From Escherichia phage vB_Eco_BCPEco_001, in sequence record PV295200.1: DNA of 64,000 nt; one strand, 5' to 3'. The first letter of the stretch is position 1; each line of letters opens with the position of its first letter. This document shows, piece by piece, positions 23,077-43,101 of the stretch. Position numbers and translations under genes: made by a program. Below the pieces are notes generated by a model that saw only the letters and a list, made by a program, of their open reading frames with translations, did no database searches and was not told the origin of the DNA.

Positions 23077-23098
23077 ATCAACTATTGAGGAGAATAAA

Positions 23099-25894: not shown

Positions 25895-25936
25895 TTCACA
25901 AAACTGTTTACAAGACTGTTCTTCTATGGTACTATA
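25895..25936 (+). promoter_or_regulatory. early promoter (repeat family B, copy 1)
   Basis: TTTTCACAAAACT-GTTTAC, 18 nt, TG-g-TACTAT; about 48 nt near-identical to copies at about 40,900 and 43,044. Confidence 0.6.
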
Positions 25937-25978
25937 CAACTATCAACTACTGATACAGAAAACAACTTGGAGAACGAA

Positions 25979-26242
25979 ATGGATAATTACGGCGAACTGT
26001 TCAACTTCTTTATGAAATGTGTTTCAGAAGATTTCGGTCGTACAGTGAATGATATTAAAGTTATCGGTCCTGACCATCCGATGTTTGAAACTTACGCAGT
26101 AATGGGGAATGAAGATGGTCAGTGGTATACTGTAAAGGTTGTGATTAACATGTTCACTGCTGAAAGTTATGTTAAACTGTCTTCTAAAGTTTACCATGAT
26201 AACGACGAAATCGCAGAAGAATATTTCAATAATATGAAATAA
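25979..26242 (+). CDS. hypothetical protein
   Basis: 87 aa from ATG at 25979 with GGAGAA RBS (track start 25967 is TTG); directly downstream of an early promoter. Confidence 0.5.
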   Translation: MDNYGELFNFFMKCVSEDFGRTVNDIKVIGPDHPMFETYAVMGNEDGQWYTVKVVINMFTAESYVKLSSKVYHDNDEIAEEYFNNMK

Positions 26243-26272
26243 GTTTACATAGGCTCATGATTGAGATATTAT
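26243..26272 (+). promoter_or_regulatory. early promoter in stem-loop (PeSL-type)
   Basis: GTTTAC, 18 nt, TATTAT; inverted repeat GGCTCAT...ATGAGCC encloses the -10. Confidence 0.55.
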
Positions 26273-26297
26273 GAGCCCATAATTTGAGGAGAACATT

Positions 26298-26633
26298 ATG
26301 AAACGTAACTTTAGTAAAGCTTTTTGTAATCGAAATTATTATCCTGAAGAGCTTTTTGAATCTAAGGAATTTAAAGAGTTTAACGAACGTTCTCAAAACA
26401 TGCCTGTACAATGGGTATTGGATTATGCTAACCGTATCTTTGAAGGCGTGCGGGATATTTGTCCTGATGATGAAGCTCCTTATTTTAAAAAGGCTTGGGA
26501 ACTTGCTAACCAAGCATATATCAATGCTTTAGAATCTTCTAAAGGCACTGACGATGATTTTACTTTATTGGCTATCAATGATGCCGTTATCGAGGCCATC
26601 GACGTCTTTATCGATGAGCTAGATGAAGAATAA
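26298..26633 (+). CDS. hypothetical acidic protein
   Basis: 111 aa ORF with GAGGAGAA RBS; no recognised motif. Confidence 0.5.
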   Translation: MKRNFSKAFCNRNYYPEELFESKEFKEFNERSQNMPVQWVLDYANRIFEGVRDICPDDEAPYFKKAWELANQAYINALESSKGTDDDFTLLAINDAVIEAIDVFIDELDEE

Positions 26634-26679
26634 GTTTACAATCTATTAAAATCTAATTGTATCAACCTAAGGAAATACT

Positions 26680-27273
26680 ATGAACACACTGAAGAAAATT
26701 GTTGAGTTTATTCGCACTAAACTTGGTTCTGCAATGGCTAAAAATCTATCTGTTGAAGAACAGTATACTGCTGCAGCAGCAAAACTGCTTGATAAAATTA
26801 AAGACCTAAAAACTGCTTCTGTTAAATCTATTAATGAAGAAAAACGTATTCGTGAACTTATTGTTGAAAAGAATAAGCAGGCCGAATCAAAAGAGCGTGA
26901 AATTCGCAAGCTTCTTTCTGAAGGTCAAGATGTAACAATGCATGCTAAACTCGGTTTACTATATCGTCGAACAGCTGAGCAGTTGACTACTAAAGCTGAT
27001 GGTTATGCTGAAATGCGAATTGAAATCGCCAAGAAAGTAGTTGAGTTAGATGATGCTCGCCAAGAACTTGCAGTTAAATTGGAATATATCCGTGAAACTC
27101 GTGCTGCGAATGCCCTTGGAATTAGTACTGCTGATGATGTAGTTGAAATTGCAGCACTGACTAAAGTTGATATTGAAGATACTCTCGCCCGAGTTGAAAC
27201 CTTTAATGGCAATATTTCTGGGGTTGAAACTACCTCTGCCGATGTTCAGGAATATATTAATTCTCTGAAATAA
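26680..27273 (+). CDS. coiled-coil protein (possibly PspA/IM30-like architecture)
   Basis: 197 aa, almost entirely heptad-like charged helices; followed by a terminator hairpin; similarity to PspA is impression only. Confidence 0.45.
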
Positions 27274-27278
27274 TGATA

Positions 27279-27300
27279 AGGGGCTTCGGCCCCTATTACT
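27279..27300 (+). terminator. terminator-like hairpin with UUCG loop
   Basis: AGGGGC-ttcg-GCCCCT followed by a weak T-rich tract. Confidence 0.45.
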
Positions 27301-27314
27301 TGGAGTAAGTAGGA

Positions 27315-27923
27315 ATGAAAATGCAAAGTGATTTCAATTCAATGTTTGAAGAGTTCCAAAGGCAGGTTGATGTTCCAGACCAATTGCTAAATGCTCTTAA
27401 ACGTATGGCAGAAGGACGTAATTATTATTGGGGTTCTTCATATGAAACTGATGAAAGTCTTTCTGGAAGATTTTCCAGAGGTAAAAAGTCTTTAATACGT
27501 CCTGGAATACTTATTAACAGTATTGAATCAATTTATTCATTGACATGCGATTTTGATGTTGAATTTACTGATTTCATTTCTCCTGAATGGACAGTTTGTT
27601 ATTTAAACGACGATTTTGATTATCTCGGTGTTTATAGTTTAAGTGACGCATGGTTTAAACGTAACTTACAAAAGTCAAATTTATTCTATATTGATACTAC
27701 AGTAAAATTTCAGGGAAAGAAATATTTCTTTACTCTTATAGTTGATTCTGAAACGAAGCATGAAAATAAACGTATTCTTAGTAAAAAGAATATCTTAACT
27801 ATTGTTGATGATCTTTTTGATAAATTCGTGGAAAATCCCAGTTTTGAAAGCGATTTATTACTAGAAAAATTTGTGAAGGAATGCAGAGAATATGTCAAAG
27901 CCATCAATGTATCTTCCAAGTAA
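27315..27923 (+). CDS. hypothetical protein; C-terminus shares FVKECR motif with the downstream membrane paralogs
   Basis: 202 aa; ends LLLEKFVKECREYVKAINVSSK. Confidence 0.5.
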   Translation: MKMQSDFNSMFEEFQRQVDVPDQLLNALKRMAEGRNYYWGSSYETDESLSGRFSRGKKSLIRPGILINSIESIYSLTCDFDVEFTDFISPEWTVCYLNDDFDYLGVYSLSDAWFKRNLQKSNLFYIDTTVKFQGKKYFFTLIVDSETKHENKRILSKKNILTIVDDLFDKFVENPSFESDLLLEKFVKECREYVKAINVSSK

Positions 27924-28284
27924 ACCGTTGAAGTATGAATTAAAGCGCCAGCTAATTTCTACTGATGTATTAATAGGTCCTGTGGTAGCTGTATCATTTG
28001 TAATTCTACTGGGGGTTGGAATAATTATAGATGTTATGACTAATATTGAATCTAATGTAATATTTGCGTCAACACTAATTCTTCCAATGATAGTTCCATT
28101 TTTATTAGTACCTGTAAATTGGATAGGATACTGGTATCAAGGAAGGCATTATCGTAAACGCGTACGTGATTGGAAAGCACAGTGTAAAAAGATTAAAAAG
28201 GAACATCAGCTTAAACTTGCTGCGTATGAATTTGATGAAATTATGAAATTTGTTAAGGAATCACGATGCAAAAGCCAAAACTAA
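27892..28284 (+). CDS. two-TM membrane protein, paralog family member 1
   Basis: 130 aa; two hydrophobic helices, basic tail ending FVKESRCKSQN. Confidence 0.5.
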   Translation: MSKPSMYLPSKPLKYELKRQLISTDVLIGPVVAVSFVILLGVGIIIDVMTNIESNVIFASTLILPMIVPFLLVPVNWIGYWYQGRHYRKRVRDWKAQCKKIKKEHQLKLAAYEFDEIMKFVKESRCKSQN

Positions 28285-28628
28285 ATAAAGTCAAATATTC
28301 GCTTCCTGAGTCATTTTTAATTTTTGCTGTGGCGTTGGCTGCAGCTCTTGCGGGTAGTCTTTTTGGATTGTTAATTGACTGTCTTATTTTAAACATTGAC
28401 GGCACAGTAAATATAATAGAAGTTTGGAGTGAACTTTGTTATACTAAAATTATTTCATTATTTTCATTCTTTGGTACCATGTTATATTTTCATTATGATA
28501 ATTTTAAAATAAATTGGCAAAGAAAAAAAGATTACAAAATACAATTAAAAGAATATAATAGCTACATGTCTTATATTGAAAATGAGTCAATGAAAGAGTT
28601 TGTGAGTGATTGTAGGAAAATTAAATGA
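28266..28628 (+). CDS. two-TM membrane protein, paralog family member 2
   Basis: 120 aa; two hydrophobic helices, tail ending EFVSDCRKIK; ATGA overlap with the next gene. Confidence 0.5.
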   Translation: MQKPKLNKVKYSLPESFLIFAVALAAALAGSLFGLLIDCLILNIDGTVNIIEVWSELCYTKIISLFSFFGTMLYFHYDNFKINWQRKKDYKIQLKEYNSYMSYIENESMKEFVSDCRKIK

Positions 28629-29113
28629 TTTTAAAAACTCGCTGGTATGATTTAGATGATGGGGATGATGGCATTTCAGTTGATAGAGTTGACTGGAATG
28701 GTTGTTCCGAAGATATGAAAAATTTGTTGATTAGGGAGTTTAGAATGGGATATCAAGCAGCTAAGCCATTTACTGTAACAGATGATAAGTTCGTATGTAT
28801 TCAAAACGGTCGCGCTAAGTTAACGAACGCTGATTGGTTCACAGATAAAATTATGATTCTGTGGTATATTATTAGTCTTCCTGTGACATCATTCGTATTT
28901 TACTTTTTTATAAAAAATCCAATGGACAGAATAGGAGATTGGATTCTTTTAACCATACTTGTTAATATTTTTACAGCAGCAATATTATCTGGGATATGGT
29001 ACACGTTCATTGAAATGCCATGGCGGCTACGCAGACAACAAAAGATTTTTGATGAAAAGAAATACGTTCAAAATTTAAATAACTTTATCACTGAATGCAG
29101 GAAATTAAAATGA
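28625..29113 (+). CDS. two-TM membrane protein, paralog family member 3
   Basis: 162 aa; two hydrophobic helices, tail ending FITECRKLK; ATGA overlap with nudE. Confidence 0.5.
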   Translation: MILKTRWYDLDDGDDGISVDRVDWNGCSEDMKNLLIREFRMGYQAAKPFTVTDDKFVCIQNGRAKLTNADWFTDKIMILWYIISLPVTSFVFYFFIKNPMDRIGDWILLTILVNIFTAAILSGIWYTFIEMPWRLRRQQKIFDEKKYVQNLNNFITECRKLK

Positions 29114-29550
29114 AAACACTATCAGCTGGTATTATCTTTATGACAGAAGATAGAGATTTATTTATGGGTCGGGTTACTGGTTCTCGTAAGCCTGGAATGA
29201 TGGCACATCGCTGGGATATTCCAAAGGGCCGCGTAGAAAATTCTGATTTGAATGCACTGGAAGCTGCAAAAAGAGAATGCTTAGAAGAGACTGGCTTTAG
29301 CAATTATAATCCAGACCTTCTAGAAGACCTAGGTGTATTTAAATATTCTAGTAATAAAGACTTACAGTTATTTTATTATACGATTCCAGTAGAGCATGAG
29401 ATGTTTAGAAATTGTCGTTGCGAGTCTTATTTTGAAAATAAAGATGGTGTTATGATTCCAGAGATGGATGCTTTTGCTCTTATTCCTCGTATTCAGTGGC
29501 AATATGTGATGGGTCCTTCACTTTACCGAATAATGAACAACCTCTTTTAA
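29110..29550 (+). CDS. nudE: Nudix hydrolase NudE
   Basis: Nudix box GRVENSDLNALEAAKRECLEETG; ATG at 29110 overlaps upstream stop (alternative start 29095); immediately upstream of lysozyme e as in T4. Confidence 0.75.
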   Translation: MKTLSAGIIFMTEDRDLFMGRVTGSRKPGMMAHRWDIPKGRVENSDLNALEAAKRECLEETGFSNYNPDLLEDLGVFKYSSNKDLQLFYYTIPVEHEMFRNCRCESYFENKDGVMIPEMDAFALIPRIQWQYVMGPSLYRIMNNLF

Positions 29551-30081
<531 letters not shown>

Positions 30082-30085
30082 AGTT

Positions 30086-30115
30086 GTTTACTTTCTCCTA
30101 GAATTGTGATAGTAT
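30086..30115 (+). promoter_or_regulatory. early promoter upstream of denV
   Basis: GTTTAC, 18 nt, TG-a-TAGTAT. Confidence 0.5.
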
Positions 30116-30140
30116 ATTCACAGTTACTTGGAGGGATAAA

Positions 30141-30557
30141 ATGACTCGTATTAATTTGACTTTAGTATCTGAACTTGCTGATCAACATTTAATCGCAGAA
30201 TACCGTGAATTGCCGCGTGTTTTTGGTATAGTTCGTAAGCATGTGGCAAACGGTAAGCGCGTTAAAGATTTTAAAATATCTTCTAAATTTATTTTAGGTT
30301 CTGGTCATGTTACTTTCTTTTACGATAAGTTAGAATTTTTGCGAAAGCGTCAATCGGACATTATAACGGAATGCTTAAAACGCGGGTTCAGTATAAAAGA
30401 TACTGAAGTTCCTGACATCAGCGATATTCCAGCAGAATGGAAAAATGATTATAACCCATGCAAATCGGCTATTAAATTGAGTCAACAACGACTCGATGAA
30501 AAAATTTTAATGAAGCCACACTGGTATAAATACTACGGCAAAAATATTTACATTTAA
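30141..30557 (+). CDS. denV: endonuclease V (pyrimidine dimer DNA glycosylase)
   Basis: 138 aa; [29 protein letters not shown]... recognisably T4 DenV with scattered substitutions. Confidence 0.85.
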
Positions 30558-30703
30558 ATAACATGGGAATAACCTGGACCTCATGATTCTGTGAGGGATT
30601 CCCGCCAACCTGTAATAAGGTCGAGCCCAAGTGCGGTAATGGGTAAATACAGAAATGGACAATTCATGCGCCATGGAATGGCCCAAACCTAGAGAGAACA
30701 AAA

Positions 30704-31243
30704 ATGAGAACATTTTTAACTGGTCCTTATCTATCCCTGATGAATGCTTTTACACACCATTCTGATGCTAGAGTAGAAGAAATTTGTAAAAACGATTATA
30801 TCCTATCATTTGAAGACTTACTTAAACAGTATTGCACACTTCGACTAGATGGTGGACGTCAATCCGGTAAATCAATTGCTGTGACTAACTTTGCTGCTAA
30901 TTGGTTGTATGATGGCGGAACAGTTATTGTTCTTTCTAATACTTCAGCTTACGCTAAAATTTCTGCAAATAACATCAAAAAGGAATTTTCGCGTTATTCT
31001 AATGATGATATACGTTTTCGTTTATTTACTGATTCTGTACGCAGTTTTATTGGTAATAAAGGAAGCAAGTTCAGAGGTTTATCGCTTTCGCGAATTTTGT
31101 ATATAATTGATGAGCCTGTCAAATCTCCTGATATGGATAAGATTTATGATGCTCATATTGACACTGTACAGTACTGCTGCAATAGTAAATGCTGCATTGG
31201 CGGTATTACTCGTCCGCAGTTTTTCGTAATTGGAATGCAATGA
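30704..31243 (+). CDS. small P-loop NTPase-like protein
   Basis: 179 aa; Walker A-like DGGRQSGKS and Walker B-like ILYIIDEP; Cys-rich C-terminus (CCNSKCC). Confidence 0.45.
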   Translation: MRTFLTGPYLSLMNAFTHHSDARVEEICKNDYILSFEDLLKQYCTLRLDGGRQSGKSIAVTNFAANWLYDGGTVIVLSNTSAYAKISANNIKKEFSRYSNDDIRFRLFTDSVRSFIGNKGSKFRGLSLSRILYIIDEPVKSPDMDKIYDAHIDTVQYCCNSKCCIGGITRPQFFVIGMQ

Positions 31244-31569
31244 TGACAGATACGCAACTTTTCGAATATCTTTATTTTTCGCCAAAAACTATTAAAAATA
31301 AATTGGTGAATCATTTTGAAATTTTGGCAAATAACAACGTCTTGAGCGAATTTTATCCCAAGCAATACAAATTACAAAAAGGTGTATTCAAAGGATGCAG
31401 AGTTTTGTGCACTGCTCCTAATGCAAGATTAATGAATAAAATTCCATATTTTACCATGGAATTTATTGATGGACCATTTAAAGGATTAATTACTCAAAGT
31501 TTAATGGCATATGATTCTGAGCCATTTTTAATTAAAGAACAATCTTGGATAAAATTATTTTCTAATTGA
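31240..31569 (+). CDS. hypothetical protein
   Basis: 109 aa from ATG at 31240 (ATGA overlap with upstream gene). Confidence 0.45.
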   Translation: MMTDTQLFEYLYFSPKTIKNKLVNHFEILANNNVLSEFYPKQYKLQKGVFKGCRVLCTAPNARLMNKIPYFTMEFIDGPFKGLITQSLMAYDSEPFLIKEQSWIKLFSN

Positions 31570-31575
31570 GGTTAT

Positions 31576-31938
31576 ATGAAAGCATATCAAATTCTTGAAG
31601 GCACACATAAAGGTACTATTTATTTTGAAGATGGTATTCAAGCACGAATTATTGTCTCTAAAACCTTTAAAGAGGACTCTTTTGTAGACCCAGAAATTTT
31701 CTATGGTTTGCATGCCCGTGAAATTGAAATTGAGCAACAGCCTACAGTTAAAATTGAAGGTGGTCAACACCTGAACGTTAACGTTCTGCGTCGTGAAACT
31801 CTGGAAGATGCAGTTAAGCATCCGGAAAAATATCCGCAGCTGACCATCCGTGTATCCGGTTATGCAGTTCGCTTTAACTCTCTGACTCCGGAACAGCAGC
31901 GCGACGTTATCGCTCGTACCTTTACCGAGAGTTTGTAA
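31576..31938 (+). CDS. autonomous glycyl radical cofactor (GrcA/YfiD-like) protein
   Basis: 120 aa; C-terminal about 64 residues ([60 protein letters not shown]) carry the glycyl radical motif RVSGY and match E. coli GrcA as recalled; this part uses GC-rich host-like codons. Confidence 0.8.
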
Positions 31939-32159
31939 TGGCAAAGATAATTATTGAAGGTTCTGAAGATGTGCTAAATGCTTTCGCCGAGTGGTTTAGT
32001 AATTCAGGCGAACAGCAATTTAATGAAGCCTGGAATATGGGTGATATTGATGGAATTTATCCTACGACAGAAATTTCTGTTCAGGGATATGGCATTCATG
32101 AACCTATTCGTTTAGTTGAATACGATTTATGCACTGGTGAGGAAGTCAAATATGATTGA
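31938..32159 (+). CDS. hypothetical acidic protein
   Basis: 73 aa ORF, ATGG overlap with upstream stop. Confidence 0.45.
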   Translation: MAKIIIEGSEDVLNAFAEWFSNSGEQQFNEAWNMGDIDGIYPTTEISVQGYGIHEPIRLVEYDLCTGEEVKYD

Positions 32160-32418
32160 AGATATTAAGGGTTATAAGCCACATACTGAAGAGAAAATCG
32201 GTAAAGTGAATGCTATCAAAGATGCTGAAGTTCGTTTAGGACTTATCTTTGACGCTTTATATGACGAATTCTGGGAAGCACTAGATAATTGTGAAGACTA
32301 TGAATTCGCGAAGAATTATGCTGAAAGCCTCGATCAGTTAGCTATTGCTAAAACGAAACTCAAAGAAGCCAGTATGTGGGCTTGTCGTGCTGTGTTCCAA
32401 CCAGAGGAAAAATACTAA
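32152..32418 (+). CDS. hypothetical acidic protein
   Basis: 88 aa from ATG at 32152 with GAGGAAG RBS. Confidence 0.45.
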
Positions 32419-32696
32419 TGGCTCAATTAAGCGCAGGGTTTGGTTATGAGTATTATACTGCCCCTCGTCGTGTGTCTGCTGCTCCTAAGAAAATTCAAAG
32501 TCTTGATGATTTCCAGGAAGTAGTCCGTAAAGCTTTCCAGGACTATGCACGTTATCTTAAAGAAGATTCACAGGACTGTCTCGAAGAAGATGAAATTGCT
32601 TATTATGAGCAGCGTCTTGAACAGCTTAAAAACTTACATGAGGTCCGTGCAGAAGTTTCAAAGTCTATGAATAAATTGATTAGATTTAAAGAATAA
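32418..32696 (+). CDS. hypothetical protein
   Basis: 92 aa from ATG at 32418 ([16 protein letters not shown]...), overlaps upstream stop. Confidence 0.45.
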
Positions 32697-32698
32697 CT

Positions 32699-32728
32699 GT
32701 TTACTTTTCCTCTTGACTGTGGTATAAT
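32699..32728 (+). promoter_or_regulatory. early promoter upstream of regB
   Basis: GTTTAC, 18 nt, TG-g-TATAAT. Confidence 0.55.
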
Positions 32729-32755
32729 TTTTCTATCAGTTAAGAGGAGAATAAC

Positions 32756-33217
32756 ATGACTATCAATACAGAAGTTTTTATCCGTCGAAATAAGCTTCGT
32801 CGTCACTTTGAGTCGGAGTTTCGTCAAATTAACAATGAGATTCGTGAGGCATCAAAAGCAGCAGGGGTCTCATCGTTTCATCTAAAATATTCTCAGCATC
32901 TTCTTGATCGTGCAATTCAACGGGAGATTGATGAGACATATGTTTTTGAATTATTCCACAAAATAAAAGACCATGTTTTAGAAGTTAATGAATTCCTGAG
33001 TATGCCTCCGCGTCCTGACATTGATGAGGATTTTATTGATGGGGTTGAATACCGTCCTGGACGTTTAGAAATCACAGATGGAAATCTTTGGCTTGGATTT
33101 ACAGTTTGTAAACCTAATGCGAAGTTCAAAGACCCGTCGCTTCAATGCAGGATGGCAATTATCAATAGTCGTCGTTTACCAGGAAAGGCTTCTAAAGCAG
33201 TAATTAAAACTCAATGA
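32756..33217 (+). CDS. regB: site-specific endoribonuclease RegB
   Basis: 153 aa, the T4 RegB size; sequence recalled as RegB-like; position between denV-side ORFs and tk as in T4. Confidence 0.6.
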   Translation: MTINTEVFIRRNKLRRHFESEFRQINNEIREASKAAGVSSFHLKYSQHLLDRAIQREIDETYVFELFHKIKDHVLEVNEFLSMPPRPDIDEDFIDGVEYRPGRLEITDGNLWLGFTVCKPNAKFKDPSLQCRMAIINSRRLPGKASKAVIKTQ

Positions 33218-33224
33218 GGTAAGC

Positions 33225-33770
33225 ATGAGAAAAGCACTACTCGCTGGTCTATTGGCCATTTCAATGATGGCACATAGCTCCGAGCATACTTTCAGTAATG
33301 TCCAACTCGATAACATGCGTTACGCGTATCAATTCGGGGAACAATTTTCTAAGGATGGAAAATATAAAACACACAAAAACATCCACAAGAGTGGATTAGG
33401 TCATATAATGGCAGCCATTTTATGGCAAGAAAGCTCTGGCGGAGTTAATTTAAAATCTAAACCAAAGCATCACGCCTACGGAATGTTCCAAAATTATTTG
33501 CCTACTATGCGAGCGAGAGTTAAGGAACTTGGTTATAATATGACCGATGCTGAAATAAAAAGAATGTTGAATAAACGATCCAATTCAGCTTCCTGGGCGT
33601 ACATTGAACTTTCTTATTGGTTAAATATACATAAGGGCGATATAAGAAAAGCAATATCCTCTTATAATTCGGGATGGAATGTTAAAGCAGGTTCTAAATA
33701 TGCTTCTGAAGTCCTAGAAAAGGCTAATTACCTTAAAAATAATAAACTTTTGGAAATAGTAAATGACTAA
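33225..33770 (+). CDS. secreted protein with lytic-transglycosylase-like motif
   Basis: 181 aa; N-terminal signal peptide (MRKALLAGLLAISMMAHS); ILWQESSGG resembles the catalytic E-S motif of family GH23 transglycosylases. Confidence 0.4.
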   Translation: MRKALLAGLLAISMMAHSSEHTFSNVQLDNMRYAYQFGEQFSKDGKYKTHKNIHKSGLGHIMAAILWQESSGGVNLKSKPKHHAYGMFQNYLPTMRARVKELGYNMTDAEIKRMLNKRSNSASWAYIELSYWLNIHKGDIRKAISSYNSGWNVKAGSKYASEVLEKANYLKNNKLLEIVND

Positions 33771-34967: not shown

Positions 34968-35133
34968 ATAGTTTTGAGTTACAATATGAAGTGTTACGTG
35001 AGCTTGATAATTTAATTGAACTCGCTGTCAATAAAGGTTTTGCCATTGGAATCGGTCAAAAAGATACTGGTCATTTAACTATGGAAATATTTAAGCAAAA
35101 GCGAATTATTTTAAAACTCCTGGAAATTAATAT

Positions 35134-35319: not shown

Positions 35320-35328
35320 GAAGGTGAT

Positions 35329-35910
35329 ATGGCGAGTTTAATTTTTACTTACGCAGCAATGAATGCTGGAAAATCTGCTTCTCTTTTGACTGCTGCACAT
35401 AATTATAAAGAACGCGGAATGGGTGTATTAGTTCTTAAGCCTGCTATTGATACTCGCGATTCTGTCTGTGAAGTCGTTTCTCGCATTGGAATTAAGCAGG
35501 AAGCGAATATTATTACGGATGATATGGATATTTTTGAGTTCTATAAATGGGCTGAAGCACAAAAAGATATTCATTGTGTATTTGTAGATGAAGCCCAGTT
35601 TTTAAAAACTAAACAGGTGCATCAATTAAGCCGAATTGTTGATACATATAATGTTCCTGTTATGGCTTATGGACTAAGGACTGATTTCGCTGGAAAATTA
35701 TTTGAAGGTTCTAAAGAACTTTTGGCGATTGCAGATAAACTTATTGAACTAAAGGCAGTTTGTCATTGTGGTAAAAAGGCTATTATGACAGCTCGATTAA
35801 TGGAAGATGGAACACCGGTTAAAGAAGGTAATCAAATCTGTATTGGTGATGAAATTTATGTTTCTTTGTGTAGAAAACATTGGAATGAATTAACTAAAAA
35901 GCTCGGTTAG
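35329..35910 (+). CDS. tk: thymidine kinase
   Basis: 193 aa; P-loop MNAGKSASLL, Walker B VFVDEAQF, C-terminal zinc motif CHCGKKA...C. Confidence 0.9.
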   Translation: MASLIFTYAAMNAGKSASLLTAAHNYKERGMGVLVLKPAIDTRDSVCEVVSRIGIKQEANIITDDMDIFEFYKWAEAQKDIHCVFVDEAQFLKTKQVHQLSRIVDTYNVPVMAYGLRTDFAGKLFEGSKELLAIADKLIELKAVCHCGKKAIMTARLMEDGTPVKEGNQICIGDEIYVSLCRKHWNELTKKLG

Positions 35911-35952
35911 TGCAAAAGTTATAAATAGGTTTATCTAACTAAAGGGGTATAT

Positions 35953-36165
35953 ATGCTACAATTAACTGAAAAGCAACTTCGCAATCTTACTGTGCTTCAA
36001 TTAGATGAAATTCGTAGGGAAGTTGGAAATATCATTTCAGCTTTGCGTCGAGAAGTATCACTCAACCAATCTCCGGCAGACTATACTAGATTGCGAAATT
36101 TTGAAAAATACCTTGATAAAGTTAAGGCCGTGCATCGGCATAAAGTAAATACAGGACAAAAATGA
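35953..36165 (+). CDS. hypothetical protein
   Basis: 70 aa basic helical ORF between tk and rI. Confidence 0.4.
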
Positions 36166-36177
36166 TAGGAGGCCTTT

Positions 36178-36471
36178 ATGGCCTTAAAAGCAACGGCACT
36201 ATTTGCCATGCTAGGATTAGCGTTTGCTTTATCTCCATCGATTGAAGCGAATGTCGATCCTCATTTTGATAAATTTATGGAATCTGGTATTAGACACGTT
36301 TATATGCTTTTTGAAAATAAAAGCGTAGAATCATCTGAACAGTTCTATAGTTTTATGCGAACGACTTATAAAAATGACCCGTGCTCTTCCGATTTTGAAT
36401 GTATAGAGCGAGGCGCGGAGATGGCACAATCATACGCTAGAATTATGAACATTAAATTGGAGACTGAATGA
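36178..36471 (+). CDS. rI: lysis inhibition regulator RI (periplasmic antiholin)
   Basis: 97 aa; MALKATALFAMLGLAFALSPSIEANVDPHFDKFMESGIRHVYMLFENKS... matches T4 RI as recalled, including signal-anchor and conserved Cys. Confidence 0.85.
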   Translation: MALKATALFAMLGLAFALSPSIEANVDPHFDKFMESGIRHVYMLFENKSVESSEQFYSFMRTTYKNDPCSSDFECIERGAEMAQSYARIMNIKLETE

Positions 36472-36854
36472 AATTCAGCGACTTTTCACAAAGTGGAAAA
36501 CCTTCAAAGGCAGATGAATACTTAGGTTTATTAATGGCTGCACAAGCTTATTTTCATTCTGCACATTTTGAAACTAAAAGTTATGCTAGACACAAAGCAT
36601 ACGATTTTATTTTCTCTGAATTGCCAGATTTGATTGATAAATTTGGTGAGCAATATTTAGGGTATTCTGGTAGAAAATACACGCCTTCTATTCCAGACGC
36701 CAGTAAACTTCCTACCGATACAATTAAAATGATTGATCACATACTAGATCAATCTAACAGCATTTATAAAGAAATGCCTCCAGCCATTCAAAGCACGATA
36801 GATGATATCACTGGGATGTTTTACCAGAGTAAATATCTTCTTTCCCTCGAATAA
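36468..36854 (+). CDS. hypothetical protein (rI.1 position)
   Basis: 128 aa ORF with ATGA overlap to rI, followed by a strong terminator. Confidence 0.5.
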
Positions 36855-36858
36855 CATT

Positions 36859-36882
36859 AGTCTCCTTCGGGAGACTTTTTTC
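36859..36882 (+). terminator. rho-independent terminator
   Basis: AGTCTCC-ttcg-GGAGACT followed by TTTTTTCATTTT. Confidence 0.75.
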
Positions 36883-36891
36883 ATTTTACCG

Positions 36892-36921
36892 GTTTACTTT
36901 CCATTTGAGCTGTGATACTAT
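36892..36921 (+). promoter_or_regulatory. early promoter
   Basis: GTTTAC, 18 nt, TG-a-TACTAT. Confidence 0.55.
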
Positions 36922-36949
36922 ACAAATATCGGATAAAGAGGAGAACATC

Positions 36950-37138
36950 ATGAAAATTGAAGCACTTAATCAAGAAGGAAATATCTACGTCATCATTAAT
37001 GGTGATTTTTTCGTCGACATGGATGAAGTTACTAGTGAAGAACTTGTAGAACTTCTTAAGAAACGTTATGATATGTGTGATGAAGCTGCAACTCATATGG
37101 CGTGTGCAATATTCTCTCTTTCATATGTGGTGGAATAA
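36950..37138 (+). CDS. small acidic protein
   Basis: 62 aa from ATG at 36950 with GAGGAGAA RBS. Confidence 0.45.
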
Positions 37139-37341
37139 TGACTAGAATTGAACAAGCAGATAAAATTAAAGAATTGGTAGCTTTAATTCGCAAAGCAGAT
37201 GAGGAACTTAGTGACTTTGCTTGGTTTTCGGCAGGCATTGCAAATAAAGGTATTGAAAAATTTGAAGCTAAAGTTGATAATGCTGTAGAAGCTTTAGATA
37301 TGTTTCTTGATGAAATTATCGATCATAATACGAGAGTTTAA
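37138..37341 (+). CDS. small helical protein, paralog family (about 60 aa)
   Basis: 67 aa from ATG at 37138; IKELVALIRKADEELSD... Confidence 0.45.
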   Translation: MTRIEQADKIKELVALIRKADEELSDFAWFSAGIANKGIEKFEAKVDNAVEALDMFLDEIIDHNTRV

Positions 37342-37343
37342 GT

Positions 37344-37538
37344 ATGCTAACACGTAAACAGTTTGAAAAAATCATTAAATTAGCACGTGATATTGAAATA
37401 GATTCATACCAATTGGCAGTTGAGCATTGTGAAGGATACTCATACGATGGTATAGAAGCAGCTAAAAAGGATTTGGATAAATCCAAAGCTAAGTTAGTTC
37501 AATATCTTGAAATGATTAGGTGGAATAATGAAAACTGA
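37344..37538 (+). CDS. small helical protein, paralog family
   Basis: 64 aa; KQFEKIIKLARDIEID... Confidence 0.45.
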   Translation: MLTRKQFEKIIKLARDIEIDSYQLAVEHCEGYSYDGIEAAKKDLDKSKAKLVQYLEMIRWNNEN

Positions 37539-37700
37539 AAAGCAGATGTTTTTAATGAAGCTAATTGAAGAATATGCTAATGCAGTTTCTGACTATGAAT
37601 GTTCTTCTCGTGAAAGAGGTACAGCTTTCGCTAAAGAAGAATTGAAAATCATGGTTGATGCTCATACAAAGCTTCAGAATTTTATTGAAAACGTCATTTA
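37527..37700 (+). CDS. small helical protein, paralog family
   Basis: 57 aa ORF not in track (under 60 aa), read from ATG at 37527: MKTEKQMFLMKLIEEYANAVSDYE... Confidence 0.35.
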
Positions 37701-37703
37701 ATG

Positions 37704-37733
37704 GTTTACAAGTTGGCAAGGTTATGGTATAGT
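37704..37733 (+). promoter_or_regulatory. early promoter
   Basis: GTTTAC, 18 nt, TG-g-TATAGT. Confidence 0.5.
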
Positions 37734-37865
37734 AATCTTGTCAACTGTCAAGGAGAAGAGAATGAAAATTTTGTTTGTTGTGTATGTGATGATTCAATAT
37801 AATTACCCAATGTTTACTTATAATCTGGTGAACAACATTATTGATATTATTCAAAGGAGTATGTA

Positions 37866-38051
37866 ATGACAAGTGAGCAGGCTTTTAAATTAAGAGAATT
37901 AATTGAGACGTATAGTAAAGCTGTTCATACATCAACAATTATTGATGAATCAGCTTTCTCCGGACATGCCAACAAGATTAAATACAAAACTCTTATGGAA
38001 GAAGCTAAAGTAAATCTTGATTCTTATATTGAAACTTTAATTGGTGAATAA
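37866..38051 (+). CDS. small helical protein, paralog family
   Basis: 61 aa; MTSEQAFKLRELIETYSKAVHTS... Confidence 0.45.
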   Translation: MTSEQAFKLRELIETYSKAVHTSTIIDESAFSGHANKIKYKTLMEEAKVNLDSYIETLIGE

Positions 38052-38052
38052 C

Positions 38053-38319
38053 ATGGGCTTTCCTAAATTAGAAGTAGGTGATTTGGTCTTAACAAAATTA
38101 TGGAATGATGTTCAATCAGTAGAAATCTGTCAATATCGTGGAGCAACAGGTAATTTGATGTACACGATTTATAATCCAGAAATTTTATTAGAGTGTCATT
38201 TGGAACGCTTTATAAAAGACACCGATAGTATGCCGTATAGTGTATCGATTGTACGTAAATCTGATACAAAGGAATACTCTAAAATTTTAGAACAAATCAG
38301 CGCAAATAAAAAGGATTAA
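38053..38319 (+). CDS. hypothetical protein
   Basis: 88 aa from ATG at 38053 (track start 38041). Confidence 0.4.
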   Translation: MGFPKLEVGDLVLTKLWNDVQSVEICQYRGATGNLMYTIYNPEILLECHLERFIKDTDSMPYSVSIVRKSDTKEYSKILEQISANKKD

Positions 38320-38320
38320 T

Positions 38321-38854
38321 ATGAAACGATTAGTATTAGAAGTTAGTCCACTTTTTGGTGAATTGGCTATAGAAAAAGTAAATAATATGTATCGTTTGAC
38401 GCAAGAAGACGATATGCTGTATTTTACACCTAGTGAAATTATTCATTTAACCCAAATTGAATATCCTTATACTGATAAAATAGTAAGCATCAATGATGAG
38501 CACAAAATTCATTTTTATTCTTCATGCCCAGGATTTAATATTAAAAGTGAGTCAATGTGTTTATCAGTTATCCATTGGGATAGTTTTATAGATAAGATTA
38601 AATATTTTTATTATTCTAATGAAAGAAAACATAGTTTAAAATGGCTCAAAAATTGCAATGCTATTATTACTAACGCTTGCAATCAGAATGATGAAACTGT
38701 TTTAAACGTATCAAAATGCTATGAAGATGGTGATGTCTTAACTATTCGTCAAATTGATGATTTTCGATCGCATATTGTCACATTTACCAAAGACGAAGCT
38801 ATTGCGCTAAAGACTTATCTCGATTCTGTCATTCCAACTATGATTTCAAAGTGA
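38321..38854 (+). CDS. hypothetical protein, paralog of the following gene
   Basis: 177 aa; C-terminus ...FTKDEAIALKTYLDSVIPTMISK. Confidence 0.45.
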   Translation: MKRLVLEVSPLFGELAIEKVNNMYRLTQEDDMLYFTPSEIIHLTQIEYPYTDKIVSINDEHKIHFYSSCPGFNIKSESMCLSVIHWDSFIDKIKYFYYSNERKHSLKWLKNCNAIITNACNQNDETVLNVSKCYEDGDVLTIRQIDDFRSHIVTFTKDEAIALKTYLDSVIPTMISK

Positions 38855-38860
38855 GGAAAT

Positions 38861-39382
38861 ATGTTTATTTCAAGTGGAAGTGGTTTAATTCGTGTTGAAT
38901 TTAAAAATGACATCTTCCTTATTCAAGGAGATGATATTATTAAAATGAGTTATGATGAAATTAAGAAAATTTGTAATGCTCTTGAAAGTCATGGAAAAGT
39001 GAACGCTGTTATTGATATTGGTGATTTATGGGTGACACTTTATGAAGTATCCGAAGGATTTAATATTGAAGATGAAAACAACATCTTAGCTATTGATAAA
39101 AGAAGCGATTTGTTTGATGTGTTAAAAGTTTATGAACAGTCAAACGGTGGAAGAAAAGCTGTATTGATTTATCAAAAACCACATTCATGTGGAACTGCTT
39201 CAATCATTTCAGATATTGAAGATGAAACTGATACTTATATGTGTGTTTTAAAAGCTGGTGGTGACCGTCATCCGGATTTTATTTCTATTCGTCAAAACAA
39301 TGGAGAAATTTCATTGTCAAAATCAGAAGCTGAAGCTATGATTAAGTATTTAACAACCGTTACGCCTTCAATGAAAGGATAA
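38861..39382 (+). CDS. hypothetical protein, paralog of the preceding gene
   Basis: 173 aa; C-terminus ...SLSKSEAEAMIKYLTTVTPSMKG. Confidence 0.45.
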   Translation: MFISSGSGLIRVEFKNDIFLIQGDDIIKMSYDEIKKICNALESHGKVNAVIDIGDLWVTLYEVSEGFNIEDENNILAIDKRSDLFDVLKVYEQSNGGRKAVLIYQKPHSCGTASIISDIEDETDTYMCVLKAGGDRHPDFISIRQNNGEISLSKSEAEAMIKYLTTVTPSMKG

Positions 39383-39384
39383 TT

Positions 39385-39846
39385 ATGATTATTAATGAAA
39401 ACTCTTGGCACTATAAATTATTCAAATTGTTTAACGATGAATGGCAACGACCTAAGACACTATGCGCATATTTTTGGTCTATTGTTATCCCTACATTTTT
39501 CGTTTCTATTTTTGGGTGTGCTATACTCGTAGGGCTAACAATTATTTGTGCAGAAAGCTTACAACGATGGCTTATTTTCGGTAGTTTATGGACTTTGCTT
39601 CCATCAGCATTTATACTTGCCATTTTGCTTGTTTTACTTATTATTGGTTCATTTGTTATTCCTGTACATTTGCGTGAAAAATATAAAGATTATAAATGGA
39701 AAAAGGATTATGCTTTACACGTAGAAAACATTGATAGGAAAAATAAAGGTTTACCTCCTATTCAACCCAAGAAATCGATTATCGTTGAATTTTTAAAAGC
39801 TCGTAAAGCTAAAGTATGTCCTGTTATTGAATATAAGGCTGAATGA
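39385..39846 (+). CDS. membrane protein
   Basis: 153 aa; two to three hydrophobic helices, Lys-rich C-terminal tail. Confidence 0.45.
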   Translation: MIINENSWHYKLFKLFNDEWQRPKTLCAYFWSIVIPTFFVSIFGCAILVGLTIICAESLQRWLIFGSLWTLLPSAFILAILLVLLIIGSFVIPVHLREKYKDYKWKKDYALHVENIDRKNKGLPPIQPKKSIIVEFLKARKAKVCPVIEYKAE

Positions 39847-40856
39847 TGAAAACAGTAATGAAAAGCTATTTTGGTAGCCATCTTTATGGAACTTCTACCC
39901 CAGAATCTGATGTAGATTTTAAAGAAATCTTTGTTCCTCCTGCTCGCGATATTCTTATCGGAAATGTCAAAGAGCATATGAGTAAAAACACTAACAATAC
40001 ATCATCTAAAAACACTAAAGATGATATTGACCATGAACTATACAGTCTTAAATATTTCTTTAAATTAGCAGCAGATGGTGAAACTGTAGCATTAGATATG
40101 CTTCACACTCCACCTGAACTAGTGGTTAAATCTGATTTGCCTGATGTGTGGAAGTTTATTCAAGACAACCGTTCTCGTTTTTATACGACTAACATGAAAT
40201 CATATTTAGGATATGTCCGCAAGCAAGCTTCTAAATACGGTGTCAAGGGTTCTCGTTTGGCCGCATTACGTGATGTATTGAAAGTAGTTAATCAAATCCC
40301 TGAGCAATGGGTTGATTACCAAGAAGACGGTTCCATTAAGCAGCGTCGAACTAAAGTTGAAGATATTAAGCATCGTCTTCCAGAGAACGAATTCTGTGAA
40401 TGGGTATTCCATAATCATGAGAAAACAGGCCCACAAACGTTCTACACTGTGTTGGGTCGTAAATATCAAACAACACTTTCTCTTATTGAGCTTAAGCAAT
40501 CTTTGAATAAACTTGATGCTGAATACGGCGAACGTGCTCGTAAGGCTGAAGCGAATGAGGGCATTGACTGGAAAGCTCTGAGTCATGCTTGCCGTGGTGG
40601 ACTCCAACTATTGGAAATTTACAAAACTGGCGACTTGGTTTACCCACTTCAAGACGCTCCATTTATTCTCGACGTGAAGTTGGGTAAACATCCATTTAAA
40701 ACCGTTCAAGAGTTTTTGGAAGATGTGGTCGATCAAGTAGAAGCAGCATCTACTGAAGCTTCTAAGAACGGTATGCAGCAAAAAGTAGACATGGGTTTCT
40801 GGGATGACTTCCTTGAGAAGGTCTATCTTGAAAACCACCGAAGTTATTATAAATGA
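39843..40856 (+). CDS. Pol-beta superfamily nucleotidyltransferase-like protein
   Basis: 337 aa; N-terminal GSHLYGTSTPESDVDF fits the G[SG]-x9-13-D-x-[DE] nucleotidyltransferase signature; possible third acidic residue in GETVALDMLH. Confidence 0.5.
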   Translation: MMKTVMKSYFGSHLYGTSTPESDVDFKEIFVPPARDILIGNVKEHMSKNTNNTSSKNTKDDIDHELYSLKYFFKLAADGETVALDMLHTPPELVVKSDLPDVWKFIQDNRSRFYTTNMKSYLGYVRKQASKYGVKGSRLAALRDVLKVVNQIPEQWVDYQEDGSIKQRRTKVEDIKHRLPENEFCEWVFHNHEKTGPQTFYTVLGRKYQTTLSLIELKQSLNKLDAEYGERARKAEANEGIDWKALSHACRGGLQLLEIYKTGDLVYPLQDAPFILDVKLGKHPFKTVQEFLEDVVDQVEAASTEASKNGMQQKVDMGFWDDFLEKVYLENHRSYYK

Positions 40857-40858
40857 TA

Positions 40859-40884
40859 GGGAGCCTTCGGGCTCCCTTTTTTTA
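40859..40884 (+). terminator. rho-independent terminator
   Basis: GGGAGCC-ttcg-GGCTCCC followed by TTTTTTTATTT. Confidence 0.75.
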
Positions 40885-40907
40885 TTTCAAAAATTTTTCA
40901 CAAAACG

Positions 40908-40937
40908 GTTTACAAGCATAAAGCTTTATGGTACTAT
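40908..40937 (+). promoter_or_regulatory. early promoter (repeat family B, copy 2)
   Basis: TTTTTCACAAAACG-GTTTAC, 18 nt, TG-g-TACTAT then ACAACTATCAACT shared with copies 1 and 3. Confidence 0.6.
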
Positions 40938-40971
40938 ACAACTATCAACTGATACGGATTTGGAGAATAAA

Positions 40972-41940
40972 ATGAAAACTGTAACTATCAATAAGGGTAT
41001 CTACTTTGGTAAAGAAATCTCTGGAACTTTTGAGCTCTTAGGCGAATGGTTCCCAGATAATGCTCCGGTGGATGCACAAGGAGATGGTAAAGTTTTTGTT
41101 GAAATTGACGGTAAGCGTCGCGGTGTTTGGGTTTACAAATCAGACATTTCATATGATGGTGTAAAAGTTGAAGAAGTTAAAGAATCATATGAAGATATGA
41201 AAACCCGCATTAATAAAAGATTTAATGTTATGGGAATGATGACGAATGGTATTATTAACGGAAACATTCGTTCATTAATTATCTCTGGTGCGGCGGGTAT
41301 TGGTAAAACGTATTCTTTAGATAAAGCTTTAAATAAAGCAAATGATATTGGATACATTGAGTATAAAAGCATTAATGGTAAAATCTCAGGTATCGGTCTT
41401 TATGAGCAGCTCTGGAATAATCGTGAAGAGAATTCTGTCCTTTTGATTGATGATGTGGATGTTTTCTCTGATATGGACATTCTTAATCTTCTGAAAGCTG
41501 CTCTGGACACTGGAGAGACCCGTAAAGTCTGCTGGAGCACTGCATCTTCTTACTTAGAAGAAAAAGGCATTGACCGTGAGTTTGAATTTAAAGGAACAAT
41601 TGTTTTTATCACAAACGTTGATATTGACCGCGAATTAGACCGTGGTACTAAACTTGCTCCACATTTACAAGCATTAGTGTCCCGCTCAGTTTATTTAGAT
41701 TTGGGTGTTCACACTAATGAAGAAATTATGGTCAGGGTTGAAGATGTTATTCTTTCAACCGACATGATGCAAAAGCGCGGTCTTTCTGATGAAGAAACTT
41801 ATAAAGCATTATCATGGATGAAAGTCAATGTTAACCGTTTACGTAATGTTTCACTGCGTACTGCACTTTATCTTGCTGACTTTATTATGACCGACAAAAA
41901 CGGTTGGGAAGAAATCGCTGAAACGGTATTGTTAAAATGA
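40972..41940 (+). CDS. P-loop NTPase (AAA-like ATPase)
   Basis: 322 aa from ATG at 40972; Walker A ISGAAGIGKTYS, Walker B VLLIDDVD. Confidence 0.5.
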   Translation: MKTVTINKGIYFGKEISGTFELLGEWFPDNAPVDAQGDGKVFVEIDGKRRGVWVYKSDISYDGVKVEEVKESYEDMKTRINKRFNVMGMMTNGIINGNIRSLIISGAAGIGKTYSLDKALNKANDIGYIEYKSINGKISGIGLYEQLWNNREENSVLLIDDVDVFSDMDILNLLKAALDTGETRKVCWSTASSYLEEKGIDREFEFKGTIVFITNVDIDRELDRGTKLAPHLQALVSRSVYLDLGVHTNEEIMVRVEDVILSTDMMQKRGLSDEETYKALSWMKVNVNRLRNVSLRTALYLADFIMTDKNGWEEIAETVLLK

Positions 41941-42656
41941 AAAAATATTTTACTATCTATAAAACTGAAATATTAAATTTAAAGACTGGCGTTAAGAAAT
42001 ATTATTATGGTCGACATATAACTAATAATATCAATGATTCGTATGTTGGTAGTGGAAATTATATAGAACGTGTAAAAGTGTCAAATGACCACATATTATC
42101 AAAAACGGTTTTAGAAGTTTTTGATAATTATGATAAAATGGTACAAGCTGAAATATTATATATCATGGCAGGTAAATTGAAATATGGAAAAAACTGTGTT
42201 AACCTGTCATACGGGGGTGAAGGAGGAAAGGTTGCAGATGAAACTAGAATAAAATGCAAAAAGCATTCTATAAATTTATGGAAAAATCCTAATCATATAC
42301 AGCATATGAAGAAAAAGATGAAAGAGGTCACATCCACGCCGGAAGCTAAATTAAACACTTCAATAAAAACTTCGCAACGATATAAGGACCCGGTTTTTGT
42401 TAGAAAAGTTAGTAATATTATTAAAAAGAAACTAAGCAATCCTGCAGTAAAAGAAAAGCATATTAATGGAATTAAAGCTGCAAAGCGTTCTCATTTAACT
42501 ATATGGCAGTATGAAGATGAATTATTCGAGCTTTGGAAAGAAACTAAATGTGGATGGAGAAAATTTACAAAGGAAGCTATAAAACACGGATATCCAAATG
42601 AACCGTATCGTAGTATGGTATCAACTTTTCAGAAAAGACATTTAGAAGAATCCTAA
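41937..42656 (+). CDS. Seg-like GIY-YIG-type homing endonuclease (diverged)
   Basis: 239 aa; N-terminal FTIYKTEILNLKTGVKKYYYGRHITNN...YVGSG aligns with SegB and the 15571 ORF; Lys-rich C-terminal tail. Confidence 0.5.
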   Translation: MKKYFTIYKTEILNLKTGVKKYYYGRHITNNINDSYVGSGNYIERVKVSNDHILSKTVLEVFDNYDKMVQAEILYIMAGKLKYGKNCVNLSYGGEGGKVADETRIKCKKHSINLWKNPNHIQHMKKKMKEVTSTPEAKLNTSIKTSQRYKDPVFVRKVSNIIKKKLSNPAVKEKHINGIKAAKRSHLTIWQYEDELFELWKETKCGWRKFTKEAIKHGYPNEPYRSMVSTFQKRHLEES

Positions 42657-42738
42657 GACAAAAAGGCAGTTCAGAAATAGATTATATGGACTGCCATCAA
42701 AAAGATGACTAGAATTAAACTGGTAAATGGAGGTAGTG

Positions 42739-43041
42739 ATGTTATACTCAAAGGCTCGTGAAATTTACGAAACTAAAATTAAAGAAGCTGTACTTCAATT
42801 CGCAACAACGATGCGATGGACAAATGATTGGGAATATTCAAAAAATCATAAGAAGCCCCTGGTGACAAGAAAGGCTCATATGTTAGTGTTAATAGACCGT
42901 GAGCAGATTAAAGCCCGAGAAGCCCTCCAGAATCATAAAAAGGCTGCCTTTGAATGGTTTATGGATAACACTGCTCCTGAGACTAAGAAAGCAGTGAGCG
43001 CGTGGTTCAGTGGAAAAAATTGTGAAAGAAGTTTCTTTTAG
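42739..43041 (+). CDS. hypothetical protein
   Basis: 100 aa from ATG at 42739 with GGAGG RBS. Confidence 0.45.
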   Translation: MLYSKAREIYETKIKEAVLQFATTMRWTNDWEYSKNHKKPLVTRKAHMLVLIDREQIKAREALQNHKKAAFEWFMDNTAPETKKAVSAWFSGKNCERSFF

Positions 43042-43043
43042 TG

Positions 43044-43073
43044 GTTTACAAGACTGTTCCTCTGTGGTACTAT
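43044..43073 (+). promoter_or_regulatory. early promoter (repeat family B, copy 3)
   Basis: GTTTACAAGACTGTTCCTCTGTGGTACTATACAACTATCAACTAC, nearly identical to copy 1. Confidence 0.6.
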
Positions 43074-43101
43074 ACAACTATCAACTACGGAGGAATACAA
43101 A

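Follow-up and report, generated by a model that had tools for sequence, protein, structure and literature searches.

Near-identical putative early promoters in a T4-like phage and the variation of small gene cassettes at one of them

Liebig and Rueger in 1989, and Miller in 2003, reportedly described early promoters of bacteriophage T4 with an extended consensus made up of the upstream (UP), -35, TGn and -10 elements (UP/-35/TGn/-10). In the T4 early promoter, GTTTAC occupies positions -36 to -31, an A-rich UP-like region lies at about -40 to -44, and the A at -11 and the T at -7 are conserved (Nolan 2006, PMC1524935). Such sites have been named 'uber UP/-35/TGn/-10 promoters' with 'additional regions of consensus' (Hinton 2010, PMC2988021). 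We describe here a 64,000-nucleotide stretch of Escherichia phage vB_Eco_BCPEco_001 (record PV295200.1; the whole stretch is referred to as the window), in which three near-identical direct repeats, copies 1, 2 and 3, precede the genes e.8, nrdC.10 and nrdC.8, respectively. Most likely, the repeats are sigma-70-dependent early promoters of the T4 type, which owe their uniformity to selection together with gene conversion and which double as crossover points for small gene cassettes.

The closest described system is the PeSL, or 'promoter-early stem-loop' (Repoila 1994, as cited in PMC4122927). Excision circles between flanking promoter/terminator elements have been proposed and detected, with crossovers in the A/T-rich region or between the -10 element and the ATG; site-specific recombination was left open as a mechanism, and one encapsidated mini-circle species was estimated to occur in about 1 in 1e5 virions (Arbiol 2010, PMC2839356). 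The PeSL model was then extended to the T4/PST pair, for which the promoter consensus is TTTACW-N17-TAYWAT (Comeau 2014, PMC4122927).

All three copies, reading TTTACA-N17-TACTAT followed by a Shine-Dalgarno sequence and an ATG, fit the PST/T4-type consensus. Copy 2 is a full PeSL composite, consisting of a terminator hairpin (40858-40877), an A/T-rich stretch, the promoter, the Shine-Dalgarno sequence and the ATG. Its surroundings are plastic, cassettes have been inserted or deleted at it, and the published crossover zones agree with it. Unlike this composite, copies 1 and 3 lack an adjacent stem-loop, the hairpin nearest to copy 1 being at 25745-25768, about 140 nt upstream.

Anatomy of the three copies

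The pattern GTTTACAAG-N12-TGGTACTATACAACTATCAACT occurs exactly three times in the window, always on the + strand, at 25906-25948, 40908-40950 and 43044-43086. It gave no match in 100 dinucleotide-preserving shuffles, and none is expected by chance. The exact 22-mer TGGTACTATACAACTATCAACT is found at 25927-25948, 40929-40950 and 43065-43086, all on the + strand, and no further match to it is present in the window with up to three mismatches allowed. An initial annotation of this DNA had reported three direct repeats in the same orientation, and the sequence reads, the repeat search and the pattern search all agree with it. Within the 43-nt core, which runs from GTTTAC to AACT, copies 1 and 3 are identical at 41 of 43 positions; copy 2 matches either of them at 35 of 43, all eight differences being inside the spacer. 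Over 66 nt, the identity to copy 1 is 83% for copy 2 and 77% for copy 3 (repeat search, family D1).

The initial annotation had also described a single shared block of 45-60 nt. The core is indeed present in all three copies, whereas the upstream block TTTTCACAAAAC is common to copies 1 and 2 only, copy 3 being preceded by the 3' end of the nrdC.9 coding sequence. Copies 1 and 2 can be aligned up to the start codon with two indels (GATAC(A/G)GA and TTGGAGAA..AAATG are common to them), and copy 3 departs from both directly after the core. The similarity among the three ends at or just past the start codon. The trio exists as reported, but it does not stand alone: the window contains weaker relatives at 22720, 36892 and 54213 (repeat search), and near-identical paralogues occur elsewhere in the genome.

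Each copy is positioned 5' of, and co-oriented with, a gene of the early region and has the layout of a T4 early promoter: GTTTAC, a 17-nt spacer (counted from TTTACA), TGG and then TACTAT. The sequence TGGTACTAT is present in all three copies, and a promoter scan flags the TG before the second element (extended -10 of the TAnnnT form). The copy 1 core, the putative e.8 early promoter (25906-25948, + strand), has its -35 element GTTTAC at 25906-25911, TGG at 25927-25929 and the -10 element TACTAT at 25930-25935. It is preceded by an A/T-rich UP-like region, TTTAAAAATTTTTTCACAAAACT (25883-25905, +), which is common to copy 2 and to the T4 imm.1, motA and ndd.6 promoters, and is followed by the e.8 leader (25949-25981, +) with GGAG at 25969-25972 and ATG at 25979-25981.

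In the copy 2 core, the putative nrdC.10 early promoter (40908-40950, +), the corresponding elements are at 40908-40913 (-35), 40929-40931 (TGG) and 40932-40937 (-10), and the leader (40951-40974, +) has GGAG at 40962-40965 and ATG at 40972-40974. Upstream of this core are the intrinsic terminator hairpin of nrdC.11, AGGGAGCCTTCGGGCTCCCT followed by a T run (40858-40877, +), which is the stem-loop part of the PeSL, and a T run with a UP-like region, TTTTTTTATTTCAAAAATTTTTCACAAAACG (40878-40907, +), which is duplicated on both sides of a cassette, A, in phages T2 and G29. The fold of 40855-40950 has an energy of -13.5 kcal/mol (z = -4.35). The copy 3 core, the putative nrdC.8 early promoter (43044-43086, +), has its elements at 43044-43049 (-35), 43065-43067 (TGG) and 43068-43073 (-10), with GGAG at 43089-43092 and ATG at 43102-43104 in the leader (43087-43104, +).

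The UP-like region at about -40 to -60 is clear in copies 1 and 2 (AAAAATTTTTTCACAAAAC). At this position, copy 3 has nrdC.9 coding sequence, GAAAGAAGTTTCTTTTAGTG, in partial agreement with the consensus; nrdC.9 (42727-43041, +; DUF7203) ends here with the stop codon TAG at 43039-43041. All three leaders contain GGAG in the ribosome-binding region, and GGAG and ATG are reached within 36, 27 and 21 nt of the core. Judged by the consensus spacing, transcription would start at A25942, A40944 and A43080. In phage Lutter, the site of copy 2 has a terminator and a promoter in the depositors' annotation, and that of copy 3 has a promoter. No promoter annotation was found in the T4 records NC_000866 and AF158101, and a literature search on nrdC.10, nrdC.8, e.8 and T4 start-site mapping returned nothing usable. 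The T4-type layout, the orthology with T4 and the Lutter annotation of copies 2 and 3 bear out the initial annotation, which had taken each copy for an early promoter; the three sites probably fire as such.

The sites are in the same places in T4. The window, which comes from a T4-like phage of the genus Tequatrovirus and runs opposite to the standard T4 map, aligns with T4 so that copy 1 is 5' of e.8 (ATG 25979), copy 2 is between nrdC.11 and nrdC.10 (ATG 40972) and copy 3 is between nrdC.9 and nrdC.8 (ATG 43102). The orthologous T4 sites hold the same three promoters at about 70.67 kb (copy 1), 55.36 kb (copy 2) and 53.91 kb (copy 3).

It had been noted that the conservation extends beyond the -35 and -10 elements into the leader. 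The identity does exceed the hexamers, but part of it belongs to a known extended consensus. A search of the whole assembled T4 genome for GTTTAC-N18-TAnnnT gave 34 sites, all on the early-gene strand, and as their consensus already contains TGTGgTAttATA.aacTATcaA, part of the 'leader' conservation is the general T4 early-promoter consensus. Given the start sites proposed above, a transcript would include no more than about 7 nt of the exact block (ATCAACT). The copies share with T4 early promoters the GTTTAC -35 element, the spacing, TGn, TAnnnT, the A/T-rich UP region (clear in copies 1 and 2), the start region and the location 5' of early genes. They differ from them in nothing essential, except that the trio, together with four further promoters of T4, makes up an unusually uniform subfamily with an exact 22-mer, and that the spacer of the e.8 copy in the window is not that of T4.

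The extent of this subfamily can be given in some detail. In T4, the core is found 5' of ndd.6, motA, frd.3 and imm.1, besides e.8, nrdC.10 and nrdC.8, and mobD.5 has part of it. In IMG/VR, the 22-mer was found in 20 stretches, one 170-kb contig having as many as six exact matches. Two pairs are the closest: the nrdC.10 and frd.3 promoters, which have the same spacer and the same T-run/UP region, and the e.8 and imm.1 promoters, which have CCCTAGAATTCCCTAAAA upstream and the start of the leader in common.

The uniformity could be due to functional constraint only, that is, to one sequence being optimal for maximal early transcription (for example by Alt-modified RNA polymerase); the copies would then have no role in recombination, and cassettes would merely be tolerated and expressed at promoters. 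Part of the block being the general T4 consensus (PMC2988021), and all three sites being positionally stable from the window to T4, are in keeping with this explanation. Other early promoters of the window differ widely, however: core identity within the trio is 78-96%, whereas nine other promoter-like sites of the window have a mean identity of 56% (maximum 78%) to one another and of 55% to the trio. Furthermore, the discriminators ACAAC and AGACC both occur at promoter-like sites within Tequatrovirus. The allele patterns described below are also at odds with constraint alone, and on the whole this explanation does not seem likely.

Another explanation would be that the repeats are leftovers of segmental duplications, the downstream genes being diverged paralogues. 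Nothing beyond the repeat itself speaks for it. The genes e.8, nrdC.10 and nrdC.8 belong to the unrelated families phrog_2678, phrog_1250 and phrog_2274 and give different Pfam results, and the similarity does not continue past the first codon or so. As the three downstream proteins are unrelated, the repeat is regulatory rather than the remnant of a gene duplication, and a duplicated segment has virtually no chance of being the correct explanation.

Cassettes at the nrdC.11/nrdC.10 junction

The segment 39843-44086, which includes copies 2 and 3, was compared among relatives sampled evenly down the similarity ranking. The relatives fall into discrete length classes, of which one representative each was read; the cassette state was assigned from the span of the record, so that six classes are verified by sequence and the rest are inferred from equal span. 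About 17 of the 37 sampled relatives carry at least one cassette, comprising one to three small open reading frames (ORFs), between nrdC.11 and nrdC.10. The states of this interval are nothing, A, B, C, A+B and B+C. In T4 and in the window, copy 2 is directly 5' of nrdC.10 and there is no cassette. In phage 107, copy 2 precedes cassette B, which has two ORFs (49 amino acids and an 87-amino-acid DUF4031 protein); in KAW1E185 it precedes the 66-amino-acid cassette C, and in slur08 it is followed by B and then C. The terminator of nrdC.11 and the UP region are retained in every class read, with the exception of phage ZCEC15.

The divergence between cassettes begins directly after ...TACTATACAACTATCAA, which ends in TATCAA at 40947, and each cassette supplies its own 3' promoter, likewise ending in TATCAA, ahead of the next gene. 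Cassette A of T2 and G29, which encodes 161 amino acids, is upstream of copy 2, has its own promoter and terminator, and has a copy of the same stretch of about 30 nt, TTTTATTTCAAAAATTTTTCACAAA, on either side. The terminal terminator-plus-promoter unit of cassette A in T2 is nearly identical, over about 90 nt, to the unit formed in T4 by the gene 32 terminator and the frd.3 promoter. The expectation that structural variants would end in the repeats thus holds for copy 2, which is the junction of cassettes A, B and C, and for neither copy 1 nor copy 3 in the genomes inspected.

In several respects, the junction can be compared with an integron, an analogy drawn by Arbiol 2010. As at attI/attC sites, small promoter-proximal ORF cassettes are arranged in series at a fixed site and in variable combinations. 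An integrase and attC-like folded sites, by contrast, are absent, every cassette comes with a promoter of its own, and general homologous recombination is the most likely mechanism. Cassette A also resembles a phage moron, as it has its own promoter and terminator and is located between two conserved genes. The difference from morons is that the flanking regulatory sequences are repeated homology, and that cassettes B and C use copy 2 as their promoter and bring in a new one for the gene downstream.

It is conceivable that an integron-like, site-specific or start-linked process operates here, in which an enzyme cuts, or transcript-primed copy-choice replication switches, at TATCAA. All cassette boundaries at copy 2 are directly after TATCAA and each cassette ends in ...TATCAA, and Arbiol 2010, who mapped crossovers between the -10 element and the ATG, did not decide against site-specific recombination. 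TATCAA is the end of the consensus, however, and any crossover within the promoter would yield the same apparent boundary. Moreover, cassette A is bounded by the duplicated UP region instead, the ZCEC15 junctions are in the spacer and at the ATG, and no candidate recombinase is associated with the sites. Such a process is extremely improbable, and it is homologous recombination that would have produced the variants.

Related variants were seen in other genomes and at other promoters. In ZCEC15, a deletion extends from the last codons of nrdC.11 into the copy 2 spacer (1280-1500 of the fetched stretch) and removes the -35 element; the first ORF of cassette B has become joined to an nrdC.10 leader and ATG of the T4 type, so that a single long coding sequence is annotated. 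In the Karamvirus CC31, the slot between nrdC.11 and nrdC.10 holds five small ORFs including cassette B (867-2211 of the fetched stretch). The identity of the CC31 cassette B to that of Tequatrovirus is 90%, against 68-76% for the flanking genes, a hint of transfer between genera. Approximately 5.2 kb past the end of the window, at the gene 43/imm.1 promoter, imm.1 is separated from the promoter-leader in four IMG/VR stretches by an extra ORF of 78-85 amino acids (MKIVMGCLA...), so that here too a promoter of the trio's subfamily is immediately followed by a cassette. In Mosigvirus PhAPEC2, a homologue of T4 frd.3 is found in the e.8-e.6 region, a different promoter-flanked locus.

An internal stem-loop of the Repoila type, located between the -35 and -10 elements or across the -10 element, was considered for the three copies and rejected; copies 1 and 3 fold no better than shuffled sequences (z = +1.0 and +1.6). 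The promoters at 26243 and 22743 do have an internal stem. The former (26243-26290; z = -3.1), which is the next promoter past e.8, is of the stem-loop PeSL kind; relatives differ in the slot that follows, that of e.7, which contains e.7, other ORFs or a deletion. The latter is one of three promoter repeats of about 70 nt at 22384-23083, at spacings of 331 and 298, with an inverted repeat spanning the -10 element (z = -3.35 for 22743, the one that was folded). Two of these three repeats precede a small MKTFKEF ORF, which resembles the internal-protein leader of the classical ipI-type PeSL locus.

Probable sequence exchange between promoter copies

The spacers of the e.8 and imm.1 promoters have the appearance of converted sequence. 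The e.8 spacer starts with ATCC(C/T)... in T4, JE01, IME537, AR1, KAW1E185, ACG-C40, four IMG/VR contigs and Mosigvirus PhAPEC2 (ATCTC in two). In the window and its closest relative, the e.8 spacer starts with AAGAC, and the four changes are within 5 nt. AAGAC is also the sequence of the imm.1 promoter of the same genome (imm.1 being read from PV295201.1). In other contigs, imm.1 has ATCCC, so that the e.8/imm.1 pair is seen mixed and in both homogenised states. The -10 element gives a second example: in KAW1E185, copies 2 and 3 have TATTAT in place of TACTAT (-10 elements ending at 1395 and 3096 of the fetched stretch) and copy 1 keeps TACTAT. The TATTAT variant had no match in IMG/VR.

From locus to locus, spacer types and leader types occur in different combinations. 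In the imm.1 promoter, an upstream part like that of e.8 is joined to a leader like that of nrdC.10, and in one contig a promoter and leader of the copy 3 type are found at the ndd locus, where the T4 discriminator differs. In Mosigvirus, a different discriminator, TATAGACCTATC, is common to the promoters of nrdC.10 and nrdC.8. Aligned on the -10 element, these two match each other at 17-19 of 22 positions and their Tequatrovirus orthologues at 15-18 of 22, which is a weak signal. Taken together, the spacer, -10, reassortment and paralogue patterns favour occasional short-patch gene conversion. Functional constraint alone would have to produce four clustered e.8 changes that reproduce the paralogue exactly, allow both homogenised e.8/imm.1 states to exist, and place the rare TATTAT in two neighbouring copies of one genome.

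Several results weigh against a role of the copies in crossover and conversion. The initial annotation had predicted that recombination between the copies could delete the intervening segments of 15 kb and 2.1 kb. Synthetic recombinant junctions between copies 2 and 3, 1 and 3, and 1 and 2, each consisting of an upstream flank, the core and a downstream flank, were compared with 50,697 phage records. In a wild-type genome, each half of such a junction finds its match on its own, and only a true deletion covers the whole query; at a threshold of at least 80% coverage, none of the 685, 755 and 748 matching records, respectively, contained a junction. The predicted deletions are therefore not borne out, and their absence from hundreds of genomes is in line with functional constraint. 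The 15-kb interval, which on the T4 map runs from e.8 to nrdC.11, is also not purely accessory as had been stated, containing e (lysozyme), denV, regB, tk and rI. In T4, loss of e blocks lysis, and since e is needed for lysis, the 15-kb deletion should not survive.

Furthermore, copies 1 and 3 were not found as indel junctions in any genome inspected and are intact and in place; having neither an adjacent stem-loop nor internal structure, they are not complete PeSLs. Cassette B was found in 155 records, that of CC31 among them, once per record and at one locus only, which speaks for presence or absence at a fixed site, not for movement between promoter copies. Since the shared consensus ends at TATCAA, the onset of cassette divergence at this motif does not tell where the crossovers took place. 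Finally, the e.8 promoter is conserved across genera, being nearly unchanged in Mosigvirus (43 of 45 positions identical to T4), and selection alone could explain this. Of the recombination proposed in the initial annotation, the cassette site at copy 2 and the signs of conversion remain, the deletions do not, and the idea itself had already been published as the PeSL model (PMC2839356, PMC4122927).

The combination of selection and gene conversion can be pictured as follows. A near-identical promoter subfamily is dispersed around Tequatrovirus genomes and would be kept uniform by two forces. The first would be selection for a multi-element 'uber' promoter that captures the host RNA polymerase immediately after infection. 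The second would be occasional short-patch ectopic gene conversion between the copies by the very active homologous recombination of the phage. As conserved islands between unrelated genes, the copies would also serve as crossover points, as in the PeSL model, at which small ORF cassettes with their own promoter are gained and lost, copy 2 being an active and demonstrable example. Singer and co-workers are said to have found in 1982 that T4 recombination drops sharply below about 50 bp of homology. As the repeats are imperfect and 43-95 nt long, only rare recombination is therefore to be expected, and this would fit the virion estimate of Arbiol et al. given above. A more far-reaching proposal seems very unlikely to hold. 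According to it, the promoters would make up a single dispersed network under active homogenisation, in which copies at distances of 2 to 90 kb trade short patches so frequently that they evolve in concert; TATCAA would be a preferred point of cassette integration, served by a start-linked mechanism such as transcript-primed copy-choice instead of recombination that depends on the length of homology.

Genomic setting and significance

The window is matched by 984 phage records, and in the segment used for comparison, 39843-44086, it shares 100% identity with Shigella phage vB_Shso_BCPShso_001. The genes behind the three copies are e.8 (25979-26242, +), nrdC.10 (40972-41940, +), which has a weak match to AAA domains, and nrdC.8 (43102-43629, +). 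The 2.1-kb interval between copies 2 and 3 contains a free-standing homing endonuclease ORF of 239 amino acids (41937-42656, +; phrog_314, E = 3.8e-30), which is located between nrdC.10 and nrdC.9, its start overlapping the stop codon of nrdC.10. It forms a gap in the alignment with T4, from which it is absent, and is present in 5 of the 37 sampled relatives. Pfam gave no informative domain in e.8, nrdC.8, cassettes A, B1 and C or the 239-amino-acid ORF; PHROGs named only the homing endonuclease and cassette A, the latter by a weak ADP-ribosylase-like match.

Other differences from T4 are found elsewhere in the window. At 30130-30137, the ipIII-ipII segment of T4 (T4 66454-65359) is missing and denV comes directly after gene e. 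The segment 38879-39842 is unmatched in T4, the mobD homing endonuclease gene being replaced by the ORFs 38861-39382 and 39385-39846. Weak DNA similarity (69%) to T4 segB at 15878-16129 suggests a further homing endonuclease gene, of the GIY-YIG type, at a different site. A 52-nt direct repeat with 88% identity (family D6) is present at 49806-49857 and 50019-50070, spaced 213 nt.

The promoters, their extended conservation in T4 and their role in shuffling are already known, either from publications or from T4 itself. The nrdC.11/nrdC.10 cassette series, the probable e.8/imm.1 conversion and the shared TATTAT are new local instances of this known phenomenon. They show how T4-like phages vary: conserved regulatory islands allow small accessory genes to be gained and lost with the expression of the neighbouring genes unbroken. 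The nrdC.11/nrdC.10 junction and the e.8/imm.1 pair are clean and easily assayed cases for PeSL-type recombination or promoter gene conversion.

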